A stretch of DNA of 64,000 nt from Candidatus Babelota bacterium (GCA_018817025.1 JAHIUU010000006.1:251909-315908), one strand, 5' to 3'; numbered from the stretch's first letter, positions 28,349 to 61,334 are shown. The notes: generated by a model from the sequence alone, not told the origin. A program made the numbers and translations.

Positions 28349-29077
28349 TTAAGATTTGTTTTCGTAATCATTTGTTCCAAAATATCGGTCGCCATAGTCT
28401 CCAAGGCCTGGAACAATAAAACTTTTGTCGTTTAGTTTTATGTCAACGGCGGCGACAATGATCTTTTTTATTTTTGGAAACTTGCTGAGAATATGGTTAA
28501 TTCCAGCGGTTGCCGCAATGACGCCGACGAAAATAATATTTTCTTCTTCAGCTCCTTTTTTTATGACATAGTCTATCGTTTGGCCAGAGCTCCCGCCGGT
28601 TGCAAGCATCGGATCAAGAATGATAATCGTATCATCGGGGTTTATTTTAGGAAATTTTTCATAGTAAGTGGAAGCTTCTGCTGTTTTTTCATCTCGCTCA
28701 AGCCCGATTGTCCCTACCGTTGCTTTTTTAAAGAATTGAAGAAATGGATGAAGAAGTGTCTCGCCGGATCGTAATATTGGAACAAGAATCGTATTGTTTT
28801 TATATTCGTGACCGATTGTCGGGGCAAGCAGCGTTTCTATTTCAATCTCTTTAACGGGAATATATTTTATGGTCGCGGATGCGAGTACATAGGCAAGGTC
28901 GTCGCTTGCATCACGAAACTGGCGTATTGTTGATTCTTTTTTTCGTAGCCTGGTTACTAATTGTGGGGCTTGAACCATTTCGACTTGCGTTTGTAGGTTT
29001 TGGTTGTCCGTGTAAGCAACTGACGAGCTTGTGGCGAAAAAACTTGCGCAAAATAGAAGTGCTGTGTTTTTTTTCAT
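28349..29077 (-). CDS. upp: Uracil phosphoribosyltransferase paralog with N-terminal signal peptide
   Basis: VPILRSG, IILDPMLATGGS, IVPGLGDYGDRYFGT. RBS AAGGAG 5 nt before ATG 29077, then MKKNTALLFCASFFATSSSVA. Confidence 0.88.
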   Translation of the reverse strand: MKKNTALLFCASFFATSSSVAYTDNQNLQTQVEMVQAPQLVTRLRKKESTIRQFRDASDDLAYVLASATIKYIPVKEIEIETLLAPTIGHEYKNNTILVPILRSGETLLHPFLQFFKKATVGTIGLERDEKTAEASTYYEKFPKINPDDTIIILDPMLATGGSSGQTIDYVIKKGAEEENIIFVGVIAATAGINHILSKFPKIKKIIVAAVDIKLNDKSFIVPGLGDYGDRYFGTNDYENKS

Positions 29078-29184
29078 AGTATCTCCTTGAAACTTTAAGA
29101 GCTTCTTTTTGGGTGAAACAAATAAGTAAAAGTGTTTTGTCTGAAAAAGTTTCACAAATGAGAAGCGAAGAGTCAATCGATAAT

Positions 29185-29796
29185 TTAACCGGGAACGTCT
29201 GTGCCAAAGAAGCGATCGCCAAAGTCGCCGAGCCCTGGAATAATAAATTTTTTATTATTTAGTCTTTCGTCAATTGCTGGAACGATAATTTTTATTTTTG
29301 GAAATGCTTTCTTGATGCGTTCGAGCCCGTCAGGGGCCGCGACTATGGCTACGAAGACAATTTTTTCTTCGTGGGCACCTTTTTCTTTTAAAATGTTTAA
29401 CGCGTCAATAGCACTTCCACCTGTAGCAATCATTGGATCGAGTAATATGACGTCGTCTTGAGCGCTTAGTGGTGGCATTTTATAGTAATACAGTTCAGCG
29501 ACAGCTGTTTTTTCATCTCGCTGGAGCCCGACAAAGCCGACGGATGCTCGTTGAAAAAAATGTAAAAATGGGTTAAGCAGCGCGATGCCAGATCGAAGGA
29601 TTGGAACGAGAACGAGATTGTTTTTGAATTGACCCCCCTCTGTTTTTGCGAGTGGAGTTTCGATTGAGATGGTTTCTTGTTCTAAGAGTTGTGCTGCTTC
29701 AGCTGCGAGGATTAGACCGAGTTTTTCTGCGGCTTGTCGAAACTGTGCGATCGATGTTTTTTTATTTCTTAAAGTTGTTAGAAGGGCTTCTTTCAT
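29185..29796 (-). CDS. upp: Uracil phosphoribosyltransferase
   Basis: LVPILRSG, LLDPMIATGGS, FIIPGLGDFGDRFFGT. Confidence 0.95.
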   Translation of the reverse strand: MKEALLTTLRNKKTSIAQFRQAAEKLGLILAAEAAQLLEQETISIETPLAKTEGGQFKNNLVLVPILRSGIALLNPFLHFFQRASVGFVGLQRDEKTAVAELYYYKMPPLSAQDDVILLDPMIATGGSAIDALNILKEKGAHEEKIVFVAIVAAPDGLERIKKAFPKIKIIVPAIDERLNNKKFIIPGLGDFGDRFFGTDVPG

Positions 29797-30023
29797 AGGT
29801 TTTCCTGTTTTTGTTGTGCTAATGTTCTATGTATTGACGCGAGAAGCCATACGATGATTAGCGTGAATAGAAAGAGCAGGACGAATTTAAGAATGGGCGA
29901 TCCCCATGGCCATGTGCCATTGATATAGAGCGTGCTTTCTGGTGGGGGCGTTGGAATAAAGGCGAAAAAAAATGTTATAGATGTTGCGATTAGAAACGGG
30001 AACTTGATAGGATAAAACTTCAC
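29793..30023 (-). CDS. Small 2-TM membrane protein, translationally coupled to upp
   Basis: GTG start with RBS GAGGAG; its stop overlaps the upp ATG (ATGA). The C-terminal helix resembles that of 28011..28322. Confidence 0.7.
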   Translation of the reverse strand: MKFYPIKFPFLIATSITFFFAFIPTPPPESTLYINGTWPWGSPILKFVLLFLFTLIIVWLLASIHRTLAQQKQENL

Positions 30024-30183
30024 AAAATTCTCCTCTACTTGAATGTTTCAATTTTGTCTTAGCAAAACCTCGTTTATTTCGTCAACAAAGCACTTGTTTG
30101 TTTTTGCTTTTTTCTTATTGTATGATAAGACTTTGTAGCTGTTGCAAATTGTTTAATAAGAGTAATAGTAAAAAAGGAGCACC

Positions 30184-31311
30184 ATGTCTTTGACATATGC
30201 GCACTTTGTTATGGTGTTACTGTTTTGTTGTAGGGTCATGGTGGCTGGCGATATGAAATTTAAAAAGAGTGTGTATGGGGAACCAGTTTGTGGGCAAGGT
30301 TCGTTTTTTCTGGTTGGTAATATTGGAGGGACAAACGCGCGTTTTGCGCTTGCTCAGGTTAGGGATTCAGGATTTAGTCTAATCGCGTTATTTCAGGGTG
30401 ATAGTAAGCAGATTTCAAGGTTTCATTTGGCCGTAGATCAGATTCTTTCTACGATAAAAAATGATTATGATATTGTTGTCAGTCAAGCATGTTTTGCTGT
30501 TGCTGGTTTAGTTTCTCAAGGGCGTGATTACTGTCGAATGACCAATTTGTCGTGGGATATTGATACGAAACTTTTGATTGAGCAGACATCGCTCGTGAGC
30601 GTTGTGTTGCTCAACGATTTTGAGGCCGTTGGTTATGGTATTGAGGGGCTTTCTGAGTACGAGCTTCAATCTCTTACCCCAACAAAAAAAACATTTGGTA
30701 TTGCAAACAAAGCTATCATAGGTGCTGGAACAGGTCTGGGTAAGAGTGTTCTTATTTGGAATGAGCTTCAAAAAGAGTATGTTGTTGTTGCAACGGAGGG
30801 GGGTAGTGCAGACTTTCCGGCTTATGATAGCGAAGAGTTAGCGTTGATTAGTTTTATTCGTCGGTCGCAGGTTGGTTCCCAAGATGTTTGTTTCGAGCAT
30901 CTTCTTTCTGGTCGTGGAATTCAGAATATTTATAAGTTTTTATGTGAAGAGAAAAAAGTAGCGTCTTCTTGCGAGAAAAAGATTCGGGAGAGTAATTGTG
31001 ATCCTAAGGTAATCGCGGCATGTCAGGCAGATGATTTGTGTTGCAAAAAGACGTTTGAGTATTTCGTAACGTTTTATGGTCGGTGTGCACGAAATTTTGC
31101 CCTTGAAACTCTTGCACTCGGGGGGGTGTATATCGCCGGAGGGATTGCTCTGAGCAATCTTGATTTATTTAGAAGCGGTTCTTTTTTGTCTGAATTCTAT
31201 CGAAATCAAACGTTTAGAAGCATGCTTCAGAATATTCCCGTTTCGATAATTACCAGCCCCCACGTAGAGCTCTACGGCGCTATTTTATTTGGTCGTCGTG
31301 CTATTTTGTAA
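30184..31311 (+). CDS. glk: Glucokinase (Glk)-like protein with hydrophobic N-terminal extension and altered motifs
   Basis: GNIGGTNARF, MTNL.W, LNDFEA, GAGTGLG, TEGG, E.LLSG.G, GGVYIAGG; RBS AAGGAG. Confidence 0.8.
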   Translation: MSLTYAHFVMVLLFCCRVMVAGDMKFKKSVYGEPVCGQGSFFLVGNIGGTNARFALAQVRDSGFSLIALFQGDSKQISRFHLAVDQILSTIKNDYDIVVSQACFAVAGLVSQGRDYCRMTNLSWDIDTKLLIEQTSLVSVVLLNDFEAVGYGIEGLSEYELQSLTPTKKTFGIANKAIIGAGTGLGKSVLIWNELQKEYVVVATEGGSADFPAYDSEELALISFIRRSQVGSQDVCFEHLLSGRGIQNIYKFLCEEKKVASSCEKKIRESNCDPKVIAACQADDLCCKKTFEYFVTFYGRCARNFALETLALGGVYIAGGIALSNLDLFRSGSFLSEFYRNQTFRSMLQNIPVSIITSPHVELYGAILFGRRAIL

Positions 31312-31768
31312 TCTCCATGAGTTCGATGTCAAAAGTTAGATCTTTGCCTGCAAGAGGGTGGTTGGCGTCGAGCGTCAGGTGTGTGTCGGTAATGCCTATT
31401 ATGCTGAAAGCAATTGTTTCTTCAGGGTGGCTTTGATTGCATTTTCCGTCGGCACACGCCGGCTGTTTTTGAAATTTGAGGATCTGTCCAATTTCTGGCT
31501 TAAGATCTTGAGGGATTTTGGTTCGTTCTACCTGTAGAATTAGTTCTTTGCGAATTTGTCCGTAGGCTTTTTCGCTTGGAATTATTATGGTCGATTGTTC
31601 TCCCGGAGCCATGTCGATGACAGCCTCTTCAAAGCCGGGGATTAATTTTTTCTCTCCTATGGTGAATTGAATTGGTTCCCGTTGAAGCGATGAGTCGAAA
31701 ACGGTGCCGTCTTTTAGTTTTCCTGTGTAATGAACTTTGACGTTGTCGCCTATTTTTGCTTGGGCCAT
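31301..31768 (-). CDS. FKBP-type peptidyl-prolyl isomerase (SlyD/FkpB-like)
   Basis: V.VHYTG.L.DGTVFDSS, LIPGFE, LDANHPLAGKDLTFDIE. Confidence 0.95.
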   Translation of the reverse strand: MAQAKIGDNVKVHYTGKLKDGTVFDSSLQREPIQFTIGEKKLIPGFEEAVIDMAPGEQSTIIIPSEKAYGQIRKELILQVERTKIPQDLKPEIGQILKFQKQPACADGKCNQSHPEETIAFSIIGITDTHLTLDANHPLAGKDLTFDIELMEITK

Positions 31769-31853
31769 TAAATTCCTTCTCTTTAGGACAGAAAAATTGA
31801 TAAAGTGTCACTGTACCATGAAATGGCGAAAATAGGAAAAAGAGGAGGGGTTT

Positions 31854-33281
31854 GTGAATAAAATAGCTTTTTTGATTTTGTTTACTTTTGTTTGGGGATA
31901 TGCGGCACCAGATCATGGGACAGCAACTCGTTGTTTGCCATGGTCTATGGGTGGCAAGCCCTGCAACCAAAAGGTTGACACAAGCGGACAGCTTTGCCCT
32001 GAGGAGCAGGCATATGTTGCAGCTCGGACGCCTATGGTCGAGGAGGCCCTACAAAAGTTTCTTGGGCGGGAGTGCTCTGCGAGGGTTGCTTATTGTTGTA
32101 GCGGAGGAGGGTATCGAGCGATGCTATCATCGCTTGGTTTTTTGTCCGGAATGCGTGAGATTGGACTTGCTGATGGGGTGATGTACAGTGCAACACTTTC
32201 AGGATCTACATGGTTTCAAGTACATTGGCTACTCCGAAAGCACCTAGAAAACATGACGTTCCCACAGTTTCTAGTGTTATTAGAGGGGCTTACTAGAGAG
32301 CCGTTCTTGCATCCAGATAAGTATGAATTTCGAACTCTTCTTGATAAAATTATTTCTGTTTTAACTGATCGGGGTAAAGTCGAAACGGCAGATCTTCTAG
32401 GAACCATTTTGGCGAATCGTCTTTTTGATGGTTTAGAAAACGTTCAGGATATAACGTTTTCCCCGCTTCGAGATGCTTTTCAAAACAATTCGTTTAATGA
32501 ACCGTTTCCCCTGTTTTCGTTGATTTTGTCTGATTTATTTCCGTATGAATGGTTTGAGGTGAATCCGTATGTGAGTGGTAGTGAGTATTTGGGTGCATTT
32601 ATTCCAACGAGCACGCTAGACAGCTTTTTTAAGAACAGTCAATGTTCAGAGTTGTTTCCAGAAAAGAGTCTAGGTTGGTTCTTGGCGATGTTTGGAAGTG
32701 CATACAATTTTAGTGTTGGTGATGTATTGATTTTTATTGCCAAAGAGAGCAAGCAGGAGTGGTTTGTCGATATGGTGAAAACGTTTGTTGATCAACACGA
32801 TTTTCATGATGCACGTATGTTTGCTTCTCCAATATACAATTTTACGTATGGCATGCAGGGTGGCGTTCTTGCTCATCAAAAGGAAACAGAGCTTTCTGAT
32901 GCCGGTATGGATTTTAATTTGGCGATTCCTCTTCTTTTACGAGAAGGCCGGAAGGTAGATGTGATTCTTGTTTGCGATGCTTCGACTGGGGTTTCGATTA
33001 CAGAGCACAAAGATTTGCACTATGCGAAAGCATATGCTGATCGTAAGGGTATAAAATTCCCCCCGCTCTCCAACCCACGATGGATTGGAGAACAGGTGCT
33101 TGTTTTTGAAGACGATCAGGACAAGACGGTGCCCGCGGTCGTTTATTTTGCTAATCCTGTACCAGAAGGAACGCTAGAATTTGATTATACAAAAGAGGAG
33201 TTTGATGCTGTTTATGGCACGATAAAAAAAACGGTTCTCGCGAGCAAAGAGGCTATAAAAGAAGTTTTTTTAAGAAGATGA
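31854..33281 (+). CDS. Secreted cytosolic-phospholipase-A2/lysophospholipase-like enzyme
   Basis: Signal peptide MNKIAFLILFTFVWGYA; CSGGGYRAM, LSGSTW and DAGMDFNL match the cPLA2 Arg/Ser/Asp motifs. Confidence 0.85.
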   Translation: MNKIAFLILFTFVWGYAAPDHGTATRCLPWSMGGKPCNQKVDTSGQLCPEEQAYVAARTPMVEEALQKFLGRECSARVAYCCSGGGYRAMLSSLGFLSGMREIGLADGVMYSATLSGSTWFQVHWLLRKHLENMTFPQFLVLLEGLTREPFLHPDKYEFRTLLDKIISVLTDRGKVETADLLGTILANRLFDGLENVQDITFSPLRDAFQNNSFNEPFPLFSLILSDLFPYEWFEVNPYVSGSEYLGAFIPTSTLDSFFKNSQCSELFPEKSLGWFLAMFGSAYNFSVGDVLIFIAKESKQEWFVDMVKTFVDQHDFHDARMFASPIYNFTYGMQGGVLAHQKETELSDAGMDFNLAIPLLLREGRKVDVILVCDASTGVSITEHKDLHYAKAYADRKGIKFPPLSNPRWIGEQVLVFEDDQDKTVPAVVYFANPVPEGTLEFDYTKEEFDAVYGTIKKTVLASKEAIKEVFLRR

Positions 33282-34613
33282 ATTTATTGGTTTTGTGACG
33301 AATAGTCGCCATCCAAAGACGATGGAGTCAAGAACGGTCCAAAGTAAGAATGAAACGTAGCCACCAAAGATTCCATACCCCATTTTGATTCCAAGTAGGT
33401 ATGCGAGTGGCAGGAAGAAGAGGTAGCTTGACAGAGTCCCGGCGATAAAGACGAACCGGGTATCCCTTGCTGCGGTCAGAGTGCCTTTGAGTATCAGGTA
33501 GCTTGAGCTGAATAGTTGGGTTATGCAGATCAGATAGATTGATGGGACTGCAAGGGTGACGACTACGGAATTTGCTGGACTGAAAAATTGTGCGATCTGT
33601 TTGGCAAATAGTGAGACTGCTAGAGAAATCCCTCCTACAAATGGAAGACTTGCGAAAAAGATCTTTTTGGTTGCCGGAATAACAAAATCATATTGTTTTT
33701 CTCCAATCGCTTTACCAATTAAAATTGTTGCAGCAACAAAAAAACCGGTTGGGGGCAGGTATGTTGCGAGAAAAACTTGAAACACAATTTGGTGGGCTGC
33801 CATCACATTAGGACCTTGTTTTGTGAAAAGAAGAACGAAAAGAAGAAGTGCAAAAATAAGGGAACCAGCGTAGAGCCCGACTTCGCCGCCAACTTTCATA
33901 AATGTTTTAAAAATTGGTCGATCAAATTTCAATATATTTTTTAGGTTGAGATATTTTTTTGTAAGAGGGATTGTAATGAGCAGGAGTATACTCAAGATAG
34001 ATCCAATAATATAGGTGATGAGGGTTGCGAGGGCGATTCCCTTGATCCCGAGTGCTGGGAACCCCCATTTGCCGTACATAAAAACGTAATTGAGCAATAC
34101 GTCCGATAAGCATATTGTCATAGTGATCAAAAATGGAAAGACTGCGTTTTTTAGACCTCGAAATAGTCCAATGACAGCAAAAATAATCAGATGAAACGGT
34201 AGTCCCATAAGTCGTATAGTCAAGTATGGAACACCAGTGCTAACCAGCTCCCCGTTGTTTATTGTTTTAAAAGTTAGGGAGGATATTATTGGGATAACGG
34301 GAAGAATTAAACAGCCGATGACAATCGCGAGAAGAAGAGCCAGGTTGATTGTTTTGGTGACGCTTTGTGGCTGCTTGGCGCCAAAAAAACGTGCAACAAG
34401 GACGGTTGTGCCGGTACGAATTCCCTCCAAAAATGCATAGACAGCGGCACAGATATTGTTGGCGATGGCAGCTGCTGCAATAATGACTGCAGCGCCTCCC
34501 AGCTGACCGATAAAGAGAAGGTCGATAAAGCTGATCGACATGACCGTTATCTGTGATGCAAGGGCCAGCCAGGCGAGACTATAGATAGATGCAAGGGTGA
34601 AATTTCGCTTCAT
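33270..34613 (-). CDS. MATE-family efflux transporter
   Basis: D..FIGQLG, VARFFGA, FRGL.N, LNYVFMYG.WGFPALGIKG.A.AT, AAHQI. Confidence 0.92.
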   Translation of the reverse strand: MKRNFTLASIYSLAWLALASQITVMSISFIDLLFIGQLGGAAVIIAAAAIANNICAAVYAFLEGIRTGTTVLVARFFGAKQPQSVTKTINLALLLAIVIGCLILPVIPIISSLTFKTINNGELVSTGVPYLTIRLMGLPFHLIIFAVIGLFRGLKNAVFPFLITMTICLSDVLLNYVFMYGKWGFPALGIKGIALATLITYIIGSILSILLLITIPLTKKYLNLKNILKFDRPIFKTFMKVGGEVGLYAGSLIFALLLFVLLFTKQGPNVMAAHQIVFQVFLATYLPPTGFFVAATILIGKAIGEKQYDFVIPATKKIFFASLPFVGGISLAVSLFAKQIAQFFSPANSVVVTLAVPSIYLICITQLFSSSYLILKGTLTAARDTRFVFIAGTLSSYLFFLPLAYLLGIKMGYGIFGGYVSFLLWTVLDSIVFGWRLFVTKPINSSS

Positions 34614-34719
34614 GAGATGCTCCTAAATTTTATTTTTTCTAGAAAAAATACTTTCTTGTCGTTAGCATTAGGAAGATAATTGTAAATTGAAACTATCAGA
34701 CTTGGCAAGAAAGGGGCAC

Positions 34720-34992
34720 ATGCGTATGGGTCGGTCTCGATTTATAACGATGTCGTTTCTTTTACTTGTTTTCTTTATTTTTCTCAAAATTTATCAGCAC
34801 AATAGAATTGTTACAACGGTTTATAAAAAACAAAAAATTGAGCGTATAAAAGGAAAATTGAAAAAAAAGAAAAATTCACTTTTGGTAACGCTATATAAGC
34901 TCAAGGGTCAGCAGCGAGTTCGCGAAAAAGCGTATGAGTTGGGGATGCGCTCACTTAAACCGTCGCAGATTATGACGGTAACAAGAACCTAA
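34720..34992 (+). CDS. ftsL: Cell division protein FtsL-like
   Basis: Basic N-terminus, single TM, coiled coil, RV...A..LGM; immediately upstream of ftsI. Confidence 0.65.
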   Translation: MRMGRSRFITMSFLLLVFFIFLKIYQHNRIVTTVYKKQKIERIKGKLKKKKNSLLVTLYKLKGQQRVREKAYELGMRSLKPSQIMTVTRT

Positions 34993-35008
34993 TTGTTGGG
35001 GGAACATA

Positions 35009-36661
35009 ATGATAATACGAAAAAATTATAAACCAAGGTTGTTGCTTGTTTTACTTTTTTTTCTTGTCCTATACGCGGTTATTGCCGTTCGTCTTTTTTT
35101 GGTTCAAATTTATCAACAGGATTTTTTTGAGATTCTTGCTCGTCAGCAGTATGTGACTGAGATTACGACGCGGCCGGCAAGAGCCTTGATCTATGATAGG
35201 AATGGAGAGCCGCTCACATTAAACAGAGAACGGCTCTCCGCTTTTTTGTTGCCACACCGTTTTCATGAACCAAAAAGAATCATGAAATTATTGAAAAAAC
35301 GATTTCCATCTGTATACAAAAAGTTACGAAAAGAAAAGAAACGGCGATTCTTGTGGGTTGATAGGCATCTTTCTGCCGAAGCTTTGCGAGAAATGAAAGC
35401 ATATAACAGTCCGGACATTTATTTTTTAGCCGAGCCCGAGCGGTTTTATCCATTTCCCGCAACGGCGCATGTGGTTGGATTCACCGATGTTGATAACATT
35501 GGTATTGCGGGGATTGAATTGCGGTTCAATAATTTGGTTGGAGGGACTCCGACGACGTTTGTTTTGGAAAAAGATGCTCGCTCCGGTCATTTTTATTTTA
35601 ATAGAGATATAAAAAAACGGGGTGGGGAGGGTGAGCCGGTAACGCTTACTATCGATAGAAATTTGCAGTTTTTTGCCCAGGAAGAACTGTTGAAAACGGT
35701 TGCGAATTATGAGGCAAAAGGCGGGGCTGTTTTGATTATGGACCCTAACTCTGGACATGTTTTAGCTATGGCAAGCAGCCCTGGATTTGATCCAAATCAA
35801 TCACGCATCACCGATCCTGAGCAAACAAAAAATATTCCGGTTACCGAGTGTTTTGAGTTGGGGTCAGTTATTAAGGTTTTTGCCGCGTTGGCGGCGCTTG
35901 AAGAAGGTGTTGTGACGCCTGACGAAGAACTAGATTGTGAGGGAAAATCAACATATATAGATGGATTTCGAGTTGAAAACTGGAAGTCTCTCGGAGAAGG
36001 GATCCATTCATTTTCTGAGGTTGTTGCTCAGTCGAACAATGTTGGGATTGCTAAAGTTGCTAAGAGGCTAGGGCCTCGTCTGTATTATCACTTGCGAAAG
36101 CTTGGTTTTGGCAATCGAACTGGTATTCGTTTTCCGGGTGAGCGTTCTGGGTTTGTTAACCCGCCGCACAATTGGTCTCGCTCTTCGATTGTTGTGCTTT
36201 CATTTGGATATGAGATTATGGCGACGATACTGCAGTTGGGAAAAGCTTTTTCCGTTATCGCAAATGGGGGATATGATGTCCAGCCTGTTCTCGTGCTAAA
36301 TCCAGAGCGCAAAAAGCGGGTTTTGCCTTTTGGAGCGCTTTATAAAAAAGAAGTTGTTGAGCAACTCAAAGATATTCTTGAGTTGAGAGGATGGTTGAAG
36401 AAGCGATATAGCATCGAAGGCTATCGAATTGTTGGAAAAACAGGTACGGCGCGGAGTGTCAAAGATGGAAAATATTCTCAGAATGATCATGTCTACACCT
36501 ATGCTGCTATTGTTGAAAAGGGCGATTACAGAAGGGTTGTTGTCTCATTCATAAAGGAGCCAAAAAAGGCGCATATGTGGGCGACTGAGGTGACGACGCC
36601 GCTATTCCACAAGGTTGCTGAGAAGATGGTCGTATATGACACTGCGAAGGGGGTTTTGTGA
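35009..36661 (+). CDS. ftsI: Class B penicillin-binding protein (FtsI/PBP3)
   Basis: R.LIYDRNG, R.YP, GIELRFN, LTID, SVIK (SxxK), SNN (SxN), KTG. Confidence 0.92.
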   Translation: MIIRKNYKPRLLLVLLFFLVLYAVIAVRLFLVQIYQQDFFEILARQQYVTEITTRPARALIYDRNGEPLTLNRERLSAFLLPHRFHEPKRIMKLLKKRFPSVYKKLRKEKKRRFLWVDRHLSAEALREMKAYNSPDIYFLAEPERFYPFPATAHVVGFTDVDNIGIAGIELRFNNLVGGTPTTFVLEKDARSGHFYFNRDIKKRGGEGEPVTLTIDRNLQFFAQEELLKTVANYEAKGGAVLIMDPNSGHVLAMASSPGFDPNQSRITDPEQTKNIPVTECFELGSVIKVFAALAALEEGVVTPDEELDCEGKSTYIDGFRVENWKSLGEGIHSFSEVVAQSNNVGIAKVAKRLGPRLYYHLRKLGFGNRTGIRFPGERSGFVNPPHNWSRSSIVVLSFGYEIMATILQLGKAFSVIANGGYDVQPVLVLNPERKKRVLPFGALYKKEVVEQLKDILELRGWLKKRYSIEGYRIVGKTGTARSVKDGKYSQNDHVYTYAAIVEKGDYRRVVVSFIKEPKKAHMWATEVTTPLFHKVAEKMVVYDTAKGVL

Positions 36662-39263: not shown

Positions 39264-39274
39264 GATAGCTTCCC

Positions 39275-44553: not shown

Positions 44554-45930
44554 CTAGGTATTGTTTTTTTGTTTGTCGATTATTACTTCTGGGTTTCCAA
44601 TAATTTTGTTTTTCTCTACAAGCTTGTGATGTTTGACGCTCACAAACCGTGCCACAATAGCCCAAAAGGAAACGATGGTAAGCAGAATAGGGGCTGAGTA
44701 GCCTATCGTTTGAATTGGTGAGAAGTTTCTAAACAGGGCGTTGATTCCTGCGCCGGCTCCTTTAATCGATCGAATGCCGAAGACGTCGATCCATCCCTTT
44801 GTTTTAAATTTGACGTCTCGTGTTGTAGGGATATAAAGAATTTCTTTAGCAGGGTTGTTTAGCGCGTACGAGAGCCCTTTCAAAATAATCATAGAGGTGA
44901 AAACGATTGGGAGAACGGGAAATATTCGTACGCCGCATATGACAAGACCGGTTGCGATTGGAAAGAAGAGAAGACAAATTCTTAGGCCAAGTGTGCGCAG
45001 GAAAAAACTTGTTCCCACCAAAGCAAAGACGAGTGTCAGGCTGTTTGCCATCATGCCGTATCGAGCGTAAAACGCGGCAAAAGCCTCTTTGGTTGGGTAG
45101 GTATGATGAGCGAGTAGGTTCATCTGAAATTCCAGCATGGTTCCAATTATTTCATATCCCGTCGTAACGACAAAAATGCCAAGAAGATAAGGGTTGGTTA
45201 TTAACAGTCGTAAACCTTCGAAAAAACCTGTTTTTGGCTGGTTGACTCGGAAGAATGGAGTATCTACAAGGTCGCTTTTTTGTTCTATTGATTGGTTGAT
45301 AATAAATGGAACAAGGGCTATGCAAAAGCTTGCGATTGTAATCATAATTGGCAGGCCCAATGTTTGCGAGTAGTTTGCGACAAGAATCGTGCCGCTGATC
45401 GTGCCGACCTGCGTTATGGTAAGGATCATTCCGTATCCTCGTTTTGCCTCGTCAGTTTTAGTTTGACTTGCGACAAAAGACCAAAACAGTGCAGGGGCAA
45501 GCGCCCCAAAACTTTCGATGATAACATAGCTTACCCAGCCGACAATACTTCCTGGGAGCCAGTAAAGAAATGGAAATAGCGTGTATGCAAGTGATATGAA
45601 AGAATTTTGTGGGTACGCGACAAGGAATGCGATTCCTAAGAACATTGAAATATAGAATGAGTAGATGACGAAGAAAAGCTTCTCTTTTTTGAACAGGTCG
45701 ATCAGTTTGCTATAAATGAGAACGAGAGGGATGATAAGAAGAAACGATGCGATTTTGCCCCATGGCTGCCATCGTACTCCGACCATGTCGATAAATATTG
45801 CTTCTCGTATTCCTCGAAGCATCCAGTATGGTCCTATGGTGAGCATGAGTGCCAAAGAAAACAGTCCAAATTTTTTTAGTTCCGAGACACTCAAATCACC
45901 CCATATAATTCTAAGGGGCTTTGGCAACAC
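44554..45930 (-). CDS. Nucleotide transporter, NTT/TLC (ATP/ADP translocase-like)
   Basis: WGDL...E.KKF, YW.LR, FWSF, NP.KEILYIPT.RDVKFK.KGWIDVFG.R..K. Confidence 0.88.
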   Translation of the reverse strand: MLPKPLRIIWGDLSVSELKKFGLFSLALMLTIGPYWMLRGIREAIFIDMVGVRWQPWGKIASFLLIIPLVLIYSKLIDLFKKEKLFFVIYSFYISMFLGIAFLVAYPQNSFISLAYTLFPFLYWLPGSIVGWVSYVIIESFGALAPALFWSFVASQTKTDEAKRGYGMILTITQVGTISGTILVANYSQTLGLPIMITIASFCIALVPFIINQSIEQKSDLVDTPFFRVNQPKTGFFEGLRLLITNPYLLGIFVVTTGYEIIGTMLEFQMNLLAHHTYPTKEAFAAFYARYGMMANSLTLVFALVGTSFFLRTLGLRICLLFFPIATGLVICGVRIFPVLPIVFTSMIILKGLSYALNNPAKEILYIPTTRDVKFKTKGWIDVFGIRSIKGAGAGINALFRNFSPIQTIGYSAPILLTIVSFWAIVARFVSVKHHKLVEKNKIIGNPEVIIDKQKNNT

Positions 45931-51931: not shown

Positions 51932-51986
51932 GTCGCAGAAGGGGTTTTGGGAAAGAGGTAGTACCTCGGAACGATGAGGAGGTGTA

Positions 51987-52169: not shown

Positions 52170-52172
52170 TGT

Positions 52173-53986: not shown

Positions 53987-54107
53987 TTTGTTCCTTTCAC
54001 TATGGTAAGATGCTACGGTACGGTGAGACAGGAGAATGCGCGAAGAGTTCTCATAAAACAGTAGTTTAGTAAAAAATTAGTATTTATGGAAATGCCAAGG
54101 GGGTAGA

Positions 54108-55718
54108 ATGATTCAAAGAGAAATAAACCGGGATGGTGTCAGGCCAACAATGCTACTCATTTTTGACGGATTTGGCTATCGAGAGGAGCGGGGGGGCAAT
54201 GCGATCGCGCATGCAGCTATGCCGACCTGGGATATGTTGCAGCGTCGATATCCGCATGAATTGCTAAAAGCTTCTGGTCGTGCTGTAGGGTTGCCGGATG
54301 GTTTCATGGGCAATTCTGAGGTTGGGCATATGACTATTGGGGCGGGACGACCGATTATGACTCCATTGTGTAAGTTTCACGATAGCATTGATAATAAAAC
54401 GTTCTTTAAAAACAAACTTTTGATTGAGAAGTTTACACAGCTAAAAGAAACAGGCCACGCTCTCCATTTGTTGGGGCTGCTCTCTGACGCCGGCGTGCAC
54501 AGTCACGATCGACATATACATGAACTTTTGCGTTTGGCAAAAATGGTTGGGGTAAAAAAAACGTTCATTCATGCGTTTCTTGATGGTCGCGATACGCCAC
54601 CAAAGTCTGCTCAACTATACCTTGATCGCTTGCAGAAGCATTGTGATCAAGCGAACTATGGTGCTATAGCCAGTTTGCACGGCCGATTTTATGCGATGGA
54701 TCGTGATAACAATTGGGATCGTGTGCAAAAAAGTTATGAGGTGTTGTGTGGCACATGTCACAGGTGTTTTGGCGTTGGTGATAATATTGATTCTCGAATG
54801 TGGCAAGAAGTAATTCATGATTGCTATAGTCGAGGGGTTTATGACGAATTTATTGAGCCCGTTTTGCTTTCTTCCGAAGATACCATTCGAGAAGGCGACG
54901 GTCTTTTTTTTACAAACTTTCGGCCTGATCGTATGCGGCAATTAACCGAATGTTTCTTAGATCCGTCATTTAATAAGTTTGCTTCGTGTGGCTTAACGGC
55001 AACGAATGGAAAGTTGGCGTTTGTTTTTTCAACAACGAGATATTCTAAATCGTTTGAGAATTTTACAAATACTGTGTTATTTGAAGACGAGGTGATTACC
55101 CCTACTCTTCTTGATCTTATTACAAAAAAGATATTTATAATTGCAGAGACTGAGAAGTATGCGCATGTGACCTACTTTTTTCGAGGCAAAGTTGACATCG
55201 AACTTGCACTTGAAACGCGGGTATTAATACCATCGATTAAAGCGAGAACGTATATTAACCATCCCGATATGTCAGCTTATGAAATTACGGCTCGTATTAT
55301 CGAATCGTTACGAGTTGATCCCGCTTATTTCTATTTAGTTAACTATGCGAACTGCGATATGGTTGGTCATTCAGGCGACTTTGAGGCGACGGTAAAAGCT
55401 TGCGAATGTTTGGATAAACAGCTGAAGGTTTTATATGAAGAGGTGGTCGAAAAGCTTGGAGGGACGATCTTTCTTGTTTCTGATCATGGTAACGCGGAAG
55501 AAATGATAGATTTAACCACAGGCCGACCAAAAACCGCGCATACATGCAATCCGGTCCCATTTGTGACTATCTGTAAGTCTTTAGTCGGTGACTACAAGAA
55601 ATTTGACCAAGGGAATTTCGAGACTATTCACGGCCTATCGATTGTTTCTCCGACAATTTTGCGCCATTTAGGGTTGCGGGTGCCAGAGGTTATGAAGGAC
55701 GCGAAATTCTTGTTATGA
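54108..55718 (+). CDS. gpmI: 2,3-bisphosphoglycerate-independent phosphoglycerate mutase
   Basis: DGFG, GLPDG.MGNSEVGH, GRFYAMDRD..WDR, AETEKYAHVT, N.DMVGH, SDHGNAE. Confidence 0.97.
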   Translation: MIQREINRDGVRPTMLLIFDGFGYREERGGNAIAHAAMPTWDMLQRRYPHELLKASGRAVGLPDGFMGNSEVGHMTIGAGRPIMTPLCKFHDSIDNKTFFKNKLLIEKFTQLKETGHALHLLGLLSDAGVHSHDRHIHELLRLAKMVGVKKTFIHAFLDGRDTPPKSAQLYLDRLQKHCDQANYGAIASLHGRFYAMDRDNNWDRVQKSYEVLCGTCHRCFGVGDNIDSRMWQEVIHDCYSRGVYDEFIEPVLLSSEDTIREGDGLFFTNFRPDRMRQLTECFLDPSFNKFASCGLTATNGKLAFVFSTTRYSKSFENFTNTVLFEDEVITPTLLDLITKKIFIIAETEKYAHVTYFFRGKVDIELALETRVLIPSIKARTYINHPDMSAYEITARIIESLRVDPAYFYLVNYANCDMVGHSGDFEATVKACECLDKQLKVLYEEVVEKLGGTIFLVSDHGNAEEMIDLTTGRPKTAHTCNPVPFVTICKSLVGDYKKFDQGNFETIHGLSIVSPTILRHLGLRVPEVMKDAKFLL

Positions 55719-55846
55719 AGCCCTTTTTATGATAGAGTAACCCTTTCTCAATCCCCCTACATGCGGTATGACAACTAGAAAAACAGGTGCAGTTTTGGTA
55801 TTTCTTCTTGAGGTAGGGGCACCTTTAACAGAAGGAAGGACACGAG

Positions 55847-57184
55847 GTGATGGGACAAAGGTTAATTCGGGCGTTATGGGGAGACCTGAGTAAAGAGGAA
55901 CTTAAGAAGTTTTCGCTTCTTGCAGTTGGCTTTTTTTTGTTGATTGGCTCCTACTGGCCACTCAAAATTTTAAAAGATGTGGTCTTTATCAACATGATTG
56001 GAAGTAAGTACCAGCCAGATGCAAAGATTTTGTCGCTGATACTTTTTTTTCCACTTGTTCTGTTTTACTCTCGTCTTGTCGATTACTTCTCGAAAGAAAA
56101 ATTAATTTATTTTTTCGTTATTATGTACGGCAGTCTTGGGTTTCTGTTCGTCTATTTCTTTTATCACCCAACGATTGGGGTTGCAAATGCTGAGCAGAGT
56201 CCCTATAGATTGCTCGGATGGCTATTTTATCTGTTTGTTGAGAGCTACATTTCTATAATGGTTTCATTATATTGGGCATTTATAAATGACGTAACGACGC
56301 CAGAGTCTGCTAAAAAGGGTTACGGCCTTCTTATTTTTGGCAGTCAGCTTGGTGCGGTTGTTTTCATTTCTATAGGTAACTATCTATCTCGTGATGTTTC
56401 ATTGTATGCGCAGCGTGTGCCATTTATTGCCCTGATGTCAGTTCTCACTTTTTTCCTGGTTGCCCTTGTCGTCTTTCTATTAACTCATGTTGTTAGTCAT
56501 GATGAACTTCAGGGATATCAGGGGACAGACAAAGGTATTGAGAAGAAGGGATCGGTAGGTTTTTTTGATGGGCTACGTGTTCTGCTTAGATTTCCGTATG
56601 TTGGTGGAATTTTTGGATTAGTATTTTTTCATGAGGTTGTTTCCGCGCTCATGCATTATCAAATGCTTCGGTTGGTAGAGGTGACCTATCTTTCGAATTC
56701 TGGGTTTGTCAATAAGTTTATGTTTGATTTTACGCTTGTTATGCAAGGTATATCCTGTTTGTTTGCCCTCTTTGGAACATCGTATTTTCAGCGAAAAATA
56801 GGAGTGAGGGGTTGCTTACTATCTTACCCAATATTGTTAGGCATAGGCGTTGTGTTTTATATTGTTAATCCGACATTATCGTTTATTGCTGGTGTTATGA
56901 TTATTGCGAAGGGAATCAACTACGTTCTCAATCAGCCGGCCAAAGAGATTTTGTATATTCCAACAACCAGGGCGATTAAGTATAAGGCTAAGGCGTGGGT
57001 GGATATGTTTGGTTTGCGTTCAGCCAAGATGGGAGGCTCTCTTGTTAATAAGTCGATAGGGTTGGCCTCGAATGTTACTGGCGGTATTTCAATACTCGTG
57101 ATAGTTTTCTGGGTTGGTCTTTCTAGGGCTATTGGTCGCAAATATCACGAGGTTGTTACGAAAGGGGATCGTATCGGGGCATAA
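55847..57184 (+). CDS. Nucleotide transporter, NTT/TLC
   Basis: LWGDL..EE.KKF, YW.LKILKD, NQPAKEILYIPT..IKYKAKAW.D.FG.R..K. Confidence 0.88.
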   Translation: MMGQRLIRALWGDLSKEELKKFSLLAVGFFLLIGSYWPLKILKDVVFINMIGSKYQPDAKILSLILFFPLVLFYSRLVDYFSKEKLIYFFVIMYGSLGFLFVYFFYHPTIGVANAEQSPYRLLGWLFYLFVESYISIMVSLYWAFINDVTTPESAKKGYGLLIFGSQLGAVVFISIGNYLSRDVSLYAQRVPFIALMSVLTFFLVALVVFLLTHVVSHDELQGYQGTDKGIEKKGSVGFFDGLRVLLRFPYVGGIFGLVFFHEVVSALMHYQMLRLVEVTYLSNSGFVNKFMFDFTLVMQGISCLFALFGTSYFQRKIGVRGCLLSYPILLGIGVVFYIVNPTLSFIAGVMIIAKGINYVLNQPAKEILYIPTTRAIKYKAKAWVDMFGLRSAKMGGSLVNKSIGLASNVTGGISILVIVFWVGLSRAIGRKYHEVVTKGDRIGA

Positions 57185-57209
57185 AAAGAGGCATTTTTAT
57201 TGATTCTCT

Positions 57210-57238
57210 TTGTCAAGATAGCAGTGCCTTGCTATAAT
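57210..57238 (+). promoter_or_regulatory. Near-consensus sigma70 promoter for the third NTT gene
   Basis: TTGTCA-N17-TATAAT with extended -10 TG. Confidence 0.8.
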
Positions 57239-57341
57239 TGATCAGGAAATCAGGGAGTTTTACCTTGCGGGGGAGGACGGGCCTAGAAGTTCCTAAATTT
57301 GTATTTGTGTTTTTTTGTTTTACCGTTTCGAGGAGATGGTT

Positions 57342-58715
57342 ATGCTACGACTTGTTCGTGTTTTATGGGGTGATTTGACGAGAGATGAACTCAAGAAGTT
57401 CGGGATCTTGTCGGTTGCCATGATGTTGATTGTTGGTAACTATTGGATGTTGCGTGTAACTAAAGATGCGTTATTTGACGTCCTCGTTGGATTTCGTCAA
57501 TGGCAGCCGGTTGCAAAGATGATTTCTGTGCTCGTTATGGTTGTTGTTGTTCTTGGGTATAGTAAGCTTGTTGACATGCTCAGGCGACACCATCTTATCT
57601 ATCTGGTATGTTCTTTTTACGGGGTGACCTTTATTCTTCTCAGTTACCTTGCTACGAATCCAGAGCTTCTCGCAGTAAGTAGTACCTCCTTAATCTACCC
57701 ACTTGTGTCATGGATTCCGTCAAAGATTCCTGGTGGTGGTATTGGGTGGTTTGCCTATGTCTTTCTGGAAAGTTATGGTTCGCTTTTGATCGCAGTATTT
57801 TACTCCTTTATTGCGAGTGTTATGACAACCGGATTGGCGAAAAAGGGGTACGGTATGATGATGTCCATAACACAGTTTGGAACATTGTCTGGTGTGCTTA
57901 TCTCTATGTTTTTTGTCGAGCGAGTTGGCATTCCAATGTTGTACTTTTTTGGTGGGATCGTGGTTTTATCGGCACCGTTTATCATAAGGTACTACATATC
58001 ACAATTTCCTGAAGATATTGCCTCGACACAAGAGGCTGTTGCTGGGAAGAAAAATAAGACGGGATTTTTCGAGGGATTGCGACTTATTGCAACGCGGCCA
58101 TATATCATGGGTGTTTTTGTTGTCGTGACCGCCTATGAAATTATCTCAACTATCGTTGAGTATCAAATGAGCTGGATTGCTGTCGGGATTTATTCGCCAG
58201 AACAGTTCACTGTCTTTCGAACCTATCAGGGACTTGGAATTAACTTGCTTGCATTATTATTTGCCATTATCGGCACCAGCTTCTTCATGAGAAGACTTGG
58301 CTTGAAATTTTGTTTAATGGCGTTTCCTATTACGATAGGTGTGGTTGTGACTGCAAACTATCTTGTACGGTTGTCAGGGGCTGGAAATACCACCTTAATG
58401 TGGGTTCTTATGCTCGCAACGGTTGCGATCAAGGGTCTTAATTATGCGCTGAACAAACCAACCTCAGAAGTGATGTACATTCCAACCAGTAAAGATGTGA
58501 AATTTAAGTCAAAAGGCTGGATTGATGTTTTTGGAAATCGCTCGACCAAAGGAGTTGGTGCTACCGTGTCGAAGAGTCTGGGACACTCGCTTCCAGTCTT
58601 GTTGATGTACGGTACAATCATATCGCTTGGAATTGTTGGAGTTTGGTTATTGATAGCACAGTTTGTTGGTAATAAGTTCAACAAACTACAAGAACAGGAT
58701 GCGATTGTCGAATAA
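57342..58715 (+). CDS. Nucleotide transporter, NTT/TLC
   Basis: LWGDL..DE.KKF, YWMLRVTKD, NKP..E.MYIPT.KDVKFKSKGWIDVFG.R.TK; RBS AGGAG. Confidence 0.88.
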   Translation: MLRLVRVLWGDLTRDELKKFGILSVAMMLIVGNYWMLRVTKDALFDVLVGFRQWQPVAKMISVLVMVVVVLGYSKLVDMLRRHHLIYLVCSFYGVTFILLSYLATNPELLAVSSTSLIYPLVSWIPSKIPGGGIGWFAYVFLESYGSLLIAVFYSFIASVMTTGLAKKGYGMMMSITQFGTLSGVLISMFFVERVGIPMLYFFGGIVVLSAPFIIRYYISQFPEDIASTQEAVAGKKNKTGFFEGLRLIATRPYIMGVFVVVTAYEIISTIVEYQMSWIAVGIYSPEQFTVFRTYQGLGINLLALLFAIIGTSFFMRRLGLKFCLMAFPITIGVVVTANYLVRLSGAGNTTLMWVLMLATVAIKGLNYALNKPTSEVMYIPTSKDVKFKSKGWIDVFGNRSTKGVGATVSKSLGHSLPVLLMYGTIISLGIVGVWLLIAQFVGNKFNKLQEQDAIVE

Positions 58716-58770
58716 GACAAAAAGTTTCCGGTAAAAAATGTTTTCTATTCCAATAGAAACATAGAAATTA

Positions 58771-58825
58771 GGGGCTGGTTGGCGGTTTTTACGTATGGAT
58801 GCCGAGAAACAACCAGTCCCTTTTT
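58771..58825 (+). terminator. Long-loop stem with U-tail, probable NTT terminator
   Basis: GGGGCTGGTTG ... CAACCAGTCCC (11 bp, one G-U) followed by TTTTT. Confidence 0.55.
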
Positions 58826-59004
58826 AGTTGCTAACAAAAATGTTAGTAACTAAAATTGCAAATATTGATTTTGCTTGTCTGTAGTTGCTTGCTGTAGACT
58901 GTCTTGTTTTGGTACACTTTTGCTTTGTGGTTTGTAGTCAGGCAATTTGAGAGATTTACATAATCTTGTTTGACGCGACGCGGTGGAAGTCGTAAAATTG
59001 TCTC

Positions 59005-60318
59005 ATGAAAATTCCCACAATCTATCCAGTTACTTGTCATACTCGTCATGTTGGTCCAGGCTCGACTTTTGTTGCGATCGATGGGTTTAAGCGTAATGGC
59101 GTTTCGTTTCTTGATGAGGCGGTTGCTCGGGGTGCGACGACGCTTGTTATCAACAGGTCTCTGCAGGGACAGATCGCCTGTCCTCCTGGGGTCTCGGTTT
59201 GTTTTGTAGATGATTGTCGAAAAGAACTTGCAGGATTATCAAGTGTTGCCCTGGGGAATCCGTCAAAGAAATTAAAAATAATTGGCATTACCGGAACAAA
59301 AGGTAAGACGTCCACGACATATATTATTGAGTATTTGTTACGTCAGGTCGGCTATAAAACAGCCCTGTTGGGATCAATAAGAAACAAAATTGTCGACGAC
59401 CAGGTTGAAAGTACTTTGACAACTCCAGAGAGCGATTATTTACATGTTTTTTTCGATCAGTGTGTCAAGCGTGGTGTAACGCATCTCGTGATGGAGGTTT
59501 CGTCACATGCCCTTGCGCTCCATCGAGTTTTCGGAATTCAGTTTCATGTTGTTGGTTTTACAAATCTTGCTCCTGAGCACATGGATTTTCATCCAACCAT
59601 GGAGCAGTATTTTGCAACGAAAACAAAAATTTTCTCTCAGGTTCATCCTAACGGACATGTTGTAATAAATTGTGATAATGAGTGGGGGCGTAGGGCTGCA
59701 TCAGGTGTGAAAAACTGTGTTATGTTCCGTAAAACTGATATTGAACTTTCGATCCCGTCTCTTATGGGAGAGTTTAATAAGTATAATGCGATTATGGCTT
59801 ATCTAGTTTGTAGAAAACTAGGCTTGAAAGAAAAAGAAATACGTGAGTTCCTAAAAAAAATTCCCGGGATTCCCGGGCGTCTTCAGTTGCACGTGCTCAA
59901 AAATGGCGCTCGTGCGTTTGTTGATTTTGCTCACAATCCGTCTTCGTTTGAGGCGGTGTTGCAAACATTACGCTCTCTAAGTTCTCACTTAATTGTTTTA
60001 TTTGGTTGTGGGGGCGATCGTGATAAAAAAAAGCGTTCTGCTATGGGGCGCCTTGCGACGCAGTATGGCGACATTGTTATTGTTACCAGCGACAACCCAA
60101 GAGATGAGGATCCCATGACAATCATAAGAGATATTTGTCAGGGGGTAACAAAAGATGTGATTTGTGTGCCAGACCGAAAAGAGGCTATCGCTCGAGTGGT
60201 CACTTTTTCTCGGCCCGATTCTATTGTTGCCTTGCTAGGCAAAGGGCATGAATCATATTATCTTTGTGGGGGCGAGTGTTATCGGTGGAGCGACTTCGAG
60301 GAGATTAGTCAATATTAA
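59005..60318 (+). CDS. murE: UDP-MurNAc-tripeptide synthetase (Mur ligase)
   Basis: GITGTKGKTST, TTPES, MEVSSH, FTNL..EH.DFH, VDFAHNP, FGCGGDRD..KR, TSDNPR, GKGHE. Confidence 0.9.
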   Translation: MKIPTIYPVTCHTRHVGPGSTFVAIDGFKRNGVSFLDEAVARGATTLVINRSLQGQIACPPGVSVCFVDDCRKELAGLSSVALGNPSKKLKIIGITGTKGKTSTTYIIEYLLRQVGYKTALLGSIRNKIVDDQVESTLTTPESDYLHVFFDQCVKRGVTHLVMEVSSHALALHRVFGIQFHVVGFTNLAPEHMDFHPTMEQYFATKTKIFSQVHPNGHVVINCDNEWGRRAASGVKNCVMFRKTDIELSIPSLMGEFNKYNAIMAYLVCRKLGLKEKEIREFLKKIPGIPGRLQLHVLKNGARAFVDFAHNPSSFEAVLQTLRSLSSHLIVLFGCGGDRDKKKRSAMGRLATQYGDIVIVTSDNPRDEDPMTIIRDICQGVTKDVICVPDRKEAIARVVTFSRPDSIVALLGKGHESYYLCGGECYRWSDFEEISQY

Positions 60319-60332
60319 GAAAGGGCATACGT

Positions 60333-61334
60333 ATGAATAAAAATATATTATTGATAGTAATAGCGTCATTACTGCTTCTTTCGTCTTGTACAACAATTGG
60401 ACAAGATAAAGAGCGTTTCGATTACAAAGTAGTTATTATCGGTTCCGGTCCGGCTGGCCTTACTGCTGGCATTTACACGTCTCGAGGAAATTTTGACACA
60501 TTAATTGTAGAAGGCGATATCCCTGGAGGGTTATTAACCGAGACCCCTGAGATTGGCAACTGGCCTGGCGAAAAAAGCATCTCAGGATATGATCTCATGG
60601 AAAAAATTCGTGATCATGCAAAGCACGAGGGCTGCAAGCTTGTTTCAGATAGTGTTTCTAAAATCGATTTTTCAAAAAAACCATATACTATTTTCACGCA
60701 GGGCGGAAAGTCGTATCAAGCTCAAGCGATCATCATTGGTACGGGGGCGAAGCGAAAAAAACTTGGGTGTCCTGGCGAGCAGGAGTATTGGGGCAAGGGT
60801 GTCTCGGCTTGCGCGACCTGTGACGCGCCGTTCTATCGAGGCAAAACGGTGGCCGTTGTTGGTGGTGGACATACTGCTTTGACCGAAGCGCATCATCTAG
60901 CTCGTTTTGCAAAAAAAGTTATTATGATTCATCGGTCTTCAGAATTTCATGTTGCCGATCCAATAAAAGATAAAGTTATTCAAGACCCCAAAATAGAAAT
61001 TATTCACGATAGTTTGATACAGAAGATTATTGGTGATAGGAGAACCGTGACAGGAGTTGTGATAAACAATCGTTTGGATCAAAAAATTACGTCTATAGCA
61101 ACAGACGGCGTTTTTGTCGCTATAGGTTTCATTCCAAACGTCGAGATGTTTGATGGCCAGTTAGAGCTTGATGATCGTGGTTTTCTTAAAGTTTCGGGCG
61201 ACTCAAAGACGAGTCAAGAAGGGGTGTTCGCTGCTGGAGACGTAATTCATCGTAAATATCAGCAGGCGATTGTTGCTGCAGGCGATGGGTGCAAGGCGGC
61301 GCTCGACTGTATAGAGTATTTTGATAAGGGGTAA
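60333..61334 (+). CDS. trxB: Thioredoxin reductase with N-terminal lipoprotein signal
   Basis: IIGSGPAG, GG.L, GVSACATCD, VVGGG, IHR, GVFAAGDV; N-terminus MNKNILLIVIASLLLLSSC. Confidence 0.93.
   Translation: MNKNILLIVIASLLLLSSCTTIGQDKERFDYKVVIIGSGPAGLTAGIYTSRGNFDTLIVEGDIPGGLLTETPEIGNWPGEKSISGYDLMEKIRDHAKHEGCKLVSDSVSKIDFSKKPYTIFTQGGKSYQAQAIIIGTGAKRKKLGCPGEQEYWGKGVSACATCDAPFYRGKTVAVVGGGHTALTEAHHLARFAKKVIMIHRSSEFHVADPIKDKVIQDPKIEIIHDSLIQKIIGDRRTVTGVVINNRLDQKITSIATDGVFVAIGFIPNVEMFDGQLELDDRGFLKVSGDSKTSQEGVFAAGDVIHRKYQQAIVAAGDGCKAALDCIEYFDKG

Follow-up and report, generated by a model that had tools for sequence, protein, structure and literature searches.

Predicted export signals on nucleotide-salvage and thiol-redox enzymes of a Dependentiae bacterium

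In Escherichia coli, TrxB, Upp, Gpt, TrxA and Glk are cytoplasmic. The closest described systems in which core metabolic enzymes work outside the cell that makes them come from intracellular parasites: microsporidian hexokinases have gained secretion signals alongside NTT-type nucleotide import (Cuomo et al. 2012, PMC3514677; further work in Senderskiy et al. 2014, PMC3976299, and Ferguson & Lucocq 2018, PMC6460350), and Chlamydia trachomatis secretes glycogen enzymes into the lumen of its inclusion by type III secretion (Gehre et al. 2016, PMC4829429; PMC9251005). Here we analyse a 64,000-nucleotide stretch of DNA (hereafter the window) from a genome of the Dependentiae (TM6), in which positions 28349-61334 hold a tandem pair of upp genes, a divergent glk-like gene, a gene for a secreted eukaryote-type phospholipase, three genes for TLC-family carriers and a trxB gene. 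One member of the upp pair (Upp2) and TrxB begin with predicted export signals, and the Glk-like protein begins with a hydrophobic leader. The window corresponds to C21:251909-315908 of the genome, which we call G000 (26 contigs, 1.10 Mb); the nearest relatives of its proteins are Candidatus Babeliales/Dependentiae (TM6) proteins, and the sole public run found to contain its DNA is a groundwater metagenome. A chlamydial origin, a first guess prompted by the NTTs and the GC content, was rejected in view of these nearest relatives.

The microsporidian hexokinases resemble the present case in that an obligately intracellular energy parasite with NTT-type import has added a secretion signal to a cytosolic ATP-dependent enzyme. 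Their signal is conserved in the lineage and absent from free-living relatives, and conserved leader-bearing clades are likewise found here for TrxB, Upp and a Gpt-like phosphoribosyltransferase (PRTase). They differ in that the microsporidian signal is a eukaryotic endoplasmic reticulum signal, a secretion trap in yeast proved it functional and it chiefly concerns hexokinase, whereas the Dependentiae signals are bacterial Sec and lipoprotein signals, are predicted, and lie on PRTases and on thioredoxin reductase (TrxR) and thioredoxin (Trx), with glucokinase as the weakest case in G000. The chlamydial glycogen system is alike in that an intracellular bacterium has its own core enzymes outside the cell, and Chlamydia imports the product; it is unlike in its type III route and in that both the compartment, the lumen of the vacuole, and the importer, UhpC, have been established, whereas OPA-family transporters were not found in G000.

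For thiol redox, extracytoplasmic thioredoxin-family lipoproteins fed by CcdA/DsbD include Etrx1/2 of Streptococcus pneumoniae, ResA/StoA of Bacillus and TlpA. As in G000, which encodes CcdA too, these are lipid- or membrane-anchored CxxC thioredoxin folds outside the cytoplasm; their electrons, however, pass via CcdA/DsbD from a cytoplasmic TrxR, whereas in the window the flavoenzyme itself has a lipoprotein signal. TrxR-Trx fusions are known as NTRC in plastids and cyanobacteria and from Mycobacterium leprae, where they are stromal or cytoplasmic and are not known to carry a bacterial export signal. Their TrxR-linker-Trx architecture is shared with proteins of about 500 aa in Dependentiae (below), but only the latter have a predicted export leader.

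Among Dependentiae, the cultured Chromulinavorax destructans replicates in the host cytoplasm and bears signal sequences on 44% of its proteins, including ankyrin proteins, proteases, nucleases and HAD hydrolases (Deeg et al. 2019, PMC6561590). The same paper classes NUDIX hydrolases as cytoplasmic, and thioredoxin, kinases and phosphoribosyltransferases each have no occurrence in it (PMC6561590). Literature searches on thioredoxin reductases that are exported, periplasmic or lipoproteins, and on these enzymes in Dependentiae, returned nothing relevant. The initial annotation of the window had presented externalised metabolism as a system not known to be described; the microsporidian and chlamydial precedents show that the principle is known. 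What appears to be new, as judged from sequence, is that enzymes of nucleotide salvage and thiol redox carry bacterial signals of the Sec and lipoprotein types.

The clearest instance is TrxB (Table 1). Its N-terminus, MNKNILLIVIASLLLLSSC, has the parts of a signal peptidase II (SPII) signal, namely a basic n-region (MNK), a hydrophobic core (NILLIVIASLLLL) and L-S-S-C19, which matches the lipobox pattern [LVI][ASTVI][GAS]C. Between the ATG and the flavin adenine dinucleotide (FAD) motif GSGPAG, the only in-frame start-type codons are a TTG (L7) and a CTG (L14); as both fall inside the leader, the leader is unavoidable, and the lipobox leader with a supported start that had been proposed for TrxB is upheld. 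Aligned to the canonical E. coli TrxB, which has no leader, the protein keeps the motifs SACATCD, GSGPAG and AAGDV. In a tree of the 120 best homologues, built after stripping the leader columns, lipobox leaders were found on 22-23 of the 120, all in one clade (support 96-99, starred; internal identity down to about 50%) throughout which the three motifs are kept. Two seemingly leaderless members of this clade proved to be truncated gene calls, and the lipobox cysteine is retained in homologues with 56-74% identity.

Upp2 carries a signal of a different type, with a basic MKK, a hydrophobic core (NTALLFCASFFA) and SVA, which places small residues at -3 and -1; the mature side of this cleavage-type site begins YTD. 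The initial annotation was right about the Sec leader of this paralog and wrong about its start, as the open reading frame read from a TTG at 29176 extends too far; the start with support is the ATG at 29077-29075 (minus strand), 5 nt past an AAGGAG at 29088-29083. The catalytic motifs are intact (phosphoribosyl pyrophosphate (PRPP) loop DPMLATGGS, VPILRSG and GLGDYGDR), and identity to the adjacent, signal-less Upp1 is 53%. In the Upp tree, 14 of 121 homologues bear leaders, and the starred branches force at least four independent gains. The Upp2 clade (four members; support 97, starred) includes P0122, P0123 and P0131, all leader-bearing, and ten more leader-bearing homologues lie outside it. 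The tandem of signal-bearing upp2 and upp1 also occurs in two metagenomic relatives (L031 and L032), one of which also has an adjacent signal-bearing glk.

Leaders of this kind might be artefacts, arising where a start is called wrongly or where an N-terminus is hydrophobic by chance in a genome that leans to AT, and some of our own candidates were. Leaders were scored with a heuristic filter of our own, not with SignalP, and a seemingly signal-bearing adenylate kinase (C9:3876-4604) was exactly such a case: its leader hangs on a GTG lacking a Shine-Dalgarno (SD) sequence, whereas translation from an ATG that lies 16 codons further downstream and is supported by an SD sequence yields the N-terminus of a normal Adk. 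The filter was also fooled by several Rossmann-type N-termini, and CTP synthase, nucleotidyl-transferases, EndoIII, KdsA, MnmA and FabF were rejected as carriers of leaders for their conserved hydrophobic or Rossmann N-termini. In addition, the public call of the Glk-like gene begins at M19 and drops the leader. For TrxB, however, there is no usable start past the leader, the SD sequences of Upp2 and Glk are placed to serve the ATGs that include the leader, and leaders are conserved both within clades and over the phylum. The null rate of the strict filter is 1.3% (44 of 3343 internal Met-started segments of the G000 proteome pass), and the conservation of the leaders in homologues, which is more decisive than this rate, places them above chance. 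Thus, the TrxB and Upp2 leaders are not mis-called starts; the pattern of conservation excludes an artefact for these two, and we regard it as highly improbable as an account of the leaders generally.

The pattern extends beyond the window. A TrxR-linker-Trx fusion of about 500 aa is present in most of 150 sampled Dependentiae genomes; in at least 91 of them a match to TrxR lies within an open frame of 450 aa or more, and a leader opens all 30 fusion loci examined, mostly with a lipobox cysteine. G000 itself has no fusion; its TrxR and Trx are two separate predicted lipoproteins, the latter (C21:15511-15981; lipobox VVPGC, active site WCPPC) found in the genome-wide screen. When the fusions and the split lipoprotein TrxBs were placed in one tree, they formed distinct clades (94 and 99, the latter starred), and the split ones grouped with canonical TrxBs (93); because the two clades are separate, the TrxR leader probably arose on two occasions. 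Many of the sampled genomes encode thioredoxins with leaders, and leaders were found on 10 of 10 Gpt-like PRTases of the sample. The single-copy Gpt-like purine PRTase of G000, on contig C18, also has a leader, with its start at M39.

A further alternative is that the leaders tether the proteins to the membrane or act as dual-targeting signals of low efficiency, with catalysis remaining on the cytoplasmic side of the inner membrane, for example beside transporters. The Gpt-like PRTase of G000 would suit this, as its leader is of the anchor type with no clear cleavage site and its gene is flanked by ABC-transporter genes, and the leaders of a few fusions (L085, L087 and L092) likewise resemble uncleaved anchors. 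The Glk leader, which has R/K after its core and no basic n-region, on a single-copy protein in a genome where no hexose-phosphate importer was found, points the same way. By contrast, in 41 of 52 TrxR leaders the hydrophobic core ends in a conserved, lipobox-like cysteine, which would have no role in a cytoplasmic tether, since lipid modification occurs only after translocation. Across these 52 leaders the mean net charge is +1.8 in the n-region versus +0.15 past the core, and this positive-inside bias gives the orientation expected of an exported domain, with the catalytic domains outside. Moreover, TrxB, Trx and Upp each retain a signal-less paralog in G000. Tethering therefore fits Glk and some anchor-type leaders on sequence grounds but not the conserved lipobox cysteine, and as a general explanation we consider it improbable.

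The proteome screen of G000 covered 974 open reading frames called from contigs of 40-46% GC. Nine short contigs (C1, C2, C3, C5, C7, C15, C17, C22 and C26) have 50-62% GC against 42-44% elsewhere; they are probably bin contamination and were left out. Pfam was run over the first 245 residues of each of about 165 proteins with leaders, most of which are orphans or ordinary envelope proteins. The recurrence of leaders over several enzyme families and over the phylum is what a lineage-wide export strategy, as proposed in the initial annotation, would predict. This proposal is partly supported: leaders are deeply conserved and recur in TrxR-Trx fusions, thioredoxins and Gpt-like PRTases, while the case is weak for Glk.

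Taken together, our analyses lead us to favour, with moderate confidence, the reading that the export signals on TrxB (SPII) and Upp2 (SPI) are real and conserved and that these enzymes work outside the cytoplasm on cofactors supplied by the host. The leader-bearing enzymes would be translocated via Sec, with TrxB and Trx lipid-anchored by Lgt and LspA, both of which are encoded in the genome (PF01790, 174.6 bits, and PF01252, 106.6 bits, both above cut-offs). They would then act in the periplasm, on the cell surface, or in the host after release via a type II/pilus-like secretin or vesicles. The PRPP, NAD(P)H, FAD or ATP they need are lacking outside free-living cells but would be abundant around a bacterium replicating in host cytoplasm. 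Because such cofactors abound there, exported PRTases could convert host bases and host PRPP to nucleotides, and exported TrxR/Trx could take electrons from host NAD(P)H and reduce disulfides in proteins of the envelope or of the host.

A second step beyond Sec can be envisaged. Classical Sec signals were seen on F-box/LRR, RING-finger and ankyrin-repeat proteins (e.g., C24:156519-157769, C16:26214-26918 and C21:204480-205544), so that eukaryote-directed proteins apparently exit via Sec plus a second step. Because F-box, RING, ankyrin and LRR proteins bear these signals, proteins that take the Sec route probably go on to reach the host. A candidate GspE/PilB-type ATPase encoded in the window is a possible part of a route past the outer membrane, and a GspD N0-domain protein is encoded elsewhere in the genome. 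TatC was not detected in G000 (96.7% complete), and Tat export of a folded flavoprotein was rejected, there being neither TatC nor a twin-arginine motif.

More speculatively, and with rather less confidence than would make it our expectation, Dependentiae may use the host cytosol as a metabolic extension, with a lipid-anchored surface or periplasmic TrxR/Trx system that runs on host NAD(P)H and FAD and seems to have been invented at least twice (once as the fusion and once as two lipoproteins), exported PRTases that spend host PRPP on nucleotides for uptake, and a redox switch that senses the host. In such a switch, a disulfide-cross-linked envelope would be reduced once the infectious particle enters host cytoplasm; the reduction of the chlamydial outer-membrane complex, which is itself unexplained, would be an analogue.

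The exported enzymes might instead do another job: TrxR, with Trx, could act as a flavin-dependent thiol oxidase that forms envelope disulfides, and the PRTases could serve as base or nucleotide binders. QSOX of eukaryotes, which joins a Trx domain to a flavin domain, is disulfide-forming in this way. In favour of such an oxidase, the usual disulfide generators DsbB and VKOR were not detected in G000 (96.7% complete), CcdA already provides a reductive route, the HRR motif for the NADPH 2'-phosphate is not conserved, and the two residues between the cysteines of CxxC are highly variable among the exported Trx domains (CPPC, CYPC, CFPC, CMPC, CPSC and CGPC in the fusions). On the other hand, exported TrxRs retain the pyridine-nucleotide motif GGGxxA (GGGHTA in the window TrxB), and CPPC, CEPC and CxPC resemble the reducing extracytoplasmic oxidoreductases StoA, ResA and TlpA. 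For the PRTases, a mere binding role sits poorly with the purifying selection on the PRPP loop and the uracil-binding motifs, which are kept in every leader-bearing Upp. We consider these other roles unlikely, although less so than tethering.

Several points weigh against external enzymes fed by the host. CcdA/DsbD_TM is present (C21:228216-228857, within a 337-aa frame), so a periplasmic reductase is not strictly needed, and the idea that an exported TrxR substitutes for a missing CcdA/DsbD was rejected on the same ground. With TatC absent, the flavoenzyme must cross the membrane unfolded and bind FAD outside; FAD acquisition would thus have to follow Sec export. The NADPH-type motif HRRxxxR is not conserved, HRRDGFR of the reference reading HRSSEFH in the window TrxB; the signal-less TrxB of the same genome (C21:27162-28094, minus strand) likewise lacks it, with IQIHDRLT, which hints that Dependentiae TrxRs generally may not prefer NADPH. 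The split lipoprotein TrxB clade is rare, and GTDB species representatives gave no close relative, the best matches being canonical TrxBs with 50-56% identity. The leader heuristic is crude, with clear false positives in Adk, CTP synthase, NTP-transferases, KdsA, MnmA, FabF and EndoIII.

The remaining objections concern the Glk-like protein. Its ATG (30184) lies 4 nt past an AAGGAG (30174-30179), with in-frame stops directly upstream, and the 23-residue leader MSLTYAHFVMVLLFCCRVMVAGD is therefore translated. The hydrophobic leader reported in the initial annotation is thus confirmed as translated from an SD-supported ATG, but it is not a typical export signal, since no K/R precedes the hydrophobic core. 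The gene is the sole copy in the genome. In addition, the phosphate-1 Asp of GDxGGT is replaced by Asn, the motif reading GNIGGT in all six members of its clade (Asp in 114 of 120 sequences), and the glucose-contact EGGH reads EGGS in the window protein alone (His in 113 of 120). No UhpC/UhpT-type hexose-phosphate importer of the OPA family was recognised in the genome (29.5 bits vs a cut-off of 407), and glucose 6-phosphate uptake by such a carrier, which would make sense of an exported Glk, was accordingly rejected. The protein also falls under the equivalog cut-offs of TIGR00749 and NF001415 (210.6 vs 225.45 and 248.8 vs 333 bits). It retains the catalytic Asp of NDFEA, and the clade (support 99, starred) bears leaders on four of its six members, with textbook signal peptides on P0244, P0245 and P0262. 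The leaderless member P0242 lies in a glycogen operon with no space for a leader; the Asn-variant Glk of its lineage is probably a working cytoplasmic kinase, to judge from this setting. The order in that operon (L096:454-6077) is GH15 glucoamylase, GT5 glycogen synthase, GH57 and then the Glk gene. The window gene is on a long branch (0.61) and may have an altered specificity or be decaying. Export of the window Glk has about an even chance at best, and the protein appears to fit a scheme of externalised enzymes weakly.

If the signals work, ATP, PRPP, NAD(P)H or FAD would be required where free-living bacteria have none, and parasitism would open a niche for extracytoplasmic enzymes. Dependentiae would then offer a bacterial, Sec-based counterpart of the microsporidian secreted hexokinase, widening the idea of secreted enzymes from sugar phosphorylation to nucleotide salvage and thiol redox, and the lipoprotein TrxB would be the first bacterial extracytoplasmic flavin thioredoxin reductase. 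When the metabolism of Dependentiae is reconstructed, and probably that of other host-dependent bacteria too, such genes are scored as cytoplasmic steps.

Table 1. Coordinates of the genes, signals and related loci discussed in the text (positions in the window unless a locus identifier is given)
Feature	Position	Strand	Evidence
GspE/PilB-type secretion ATPase, candidate	24344..26074	-	GSPTGSGKTT Walker motif and GspE-like sequence; assigned by reading, not by hidden Markov model
Upp2, uracil phosphoribosyltransferase paralog with Sec signal, 242 aa	28349..29077	-	NF001097 188.1 bits vs cut-off 114
Upp2 signal peptide, signal peptidase I (SPI) type, MKKNTALLFCASFFATSSSVA, cleavage-type site SVA then Y	29015..29077	-	SD sequence and conservation
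Upp1, canonical signal-less uracil phosphoribosyltransferase, 203 aa, tandem to Upp2	29185..29796	-	Pfam UPRTase 5.9e-67
Glk-like protein, 375 aa, 23-aa hydrophobic leader (30184-30252)	30184..31311	+	Pfam Glucokinase PF02685 4.1e-79, 266 bits
Secreted eukaryote-type phospholipase PLA2_B with signal peptide	31854..33281	+	Pfam PLA2_B 3.5e-17
TLC-superfamily carrier, distant NTT-like	44554..45930	-	Pfam TLC 7.2e-26; TIGR00769 79 bits vs 387
TLC-superfamily carrier, distant NTT-like	55847..57184	+	Pfam TLC 3.7e-21; TIGR00769 64 bits vs 387
TLC-superfamily carrier, distant NTT-like	57315..58715	+	Pfam TLC 3.6e-18; TIGR00769 60 bits vs 387
TrxB paralog, thioredoxin-disulfide reductase as lipoprotein precursor, 333 aa	60333..61334	+	TIGR01292 354.8 bits vs cut-off 343.45
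SPII signal of TrxB, MNKNILLIVIASLLLLSSC, lipobox L-S-S-C19	60333..60389	+	Direct sequence reading
TrxR-Trx fusion loci	L063-L092, e.g. L045:328-1830 = G116:C1:146789-148291		

Among the neighbouring genes, the three carriers had been annotated as NTTs. Their membership in the Pfam TLC family stands, while identity as NTTs does not, with scores of 60-79 bits against the TIGR00769 cut-off of 387; the whole genome encodes five TLC-family genes. Uptake of the products of exported enzymes by these carriers, as proposed in the initial annotation, is a putative link. The phospholipase gene in conserved synteny with the upp/glk cluster encodes a signal peptide and recurs, again with a signal peptide, in L031 and L032.

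Lys/Arg-rich stretches resembling nuclear localization signals were seen just past the signal peptide in some leader-bearing enzymes, for example KKRK...KKRK in an Upp2 homologue and RRRKR...KRRK in a CPT-like P-loop kinase; the loci concerned are L032:3-473 (minus strand), C18:860-1939 of G000 (plus strand) and P0131. Such stretches would be sensible only if the proteins reach the host; alternatively, they could be compositional.

The screen also gave candidate leaders on the CPT-like P-loop kinase and on DUF2608. A further set of five loci (C4:75921-76436, C14:36196-36738, C24:20092-21168, C21:98180-99787 and C24:47210-48811) covers a NUDIX hydrolase, an HSP20, an APH/choline-kinase-like lipoprotein, a Memo-like lipoprotein and a type I phosphodiesterase/nucleotide pyrophosphatase, with candidate signal peptides or lipoboxes. 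Finally, C24:125556-127241 and its paralogs C14:79587-81218, C16:20001-21518 and C24:129409-132769 form a signal-peptide family of about 500-560 aa with no Pfam match. These proteins have the N-terminal motifs KTYTNKTFLMPRSH... and NPARICREGVAAYTTF in common, and a stretch in one member is very rich in Cys; the family may represent major outer-membrane proteins on which an exported thiol-redox system could act.

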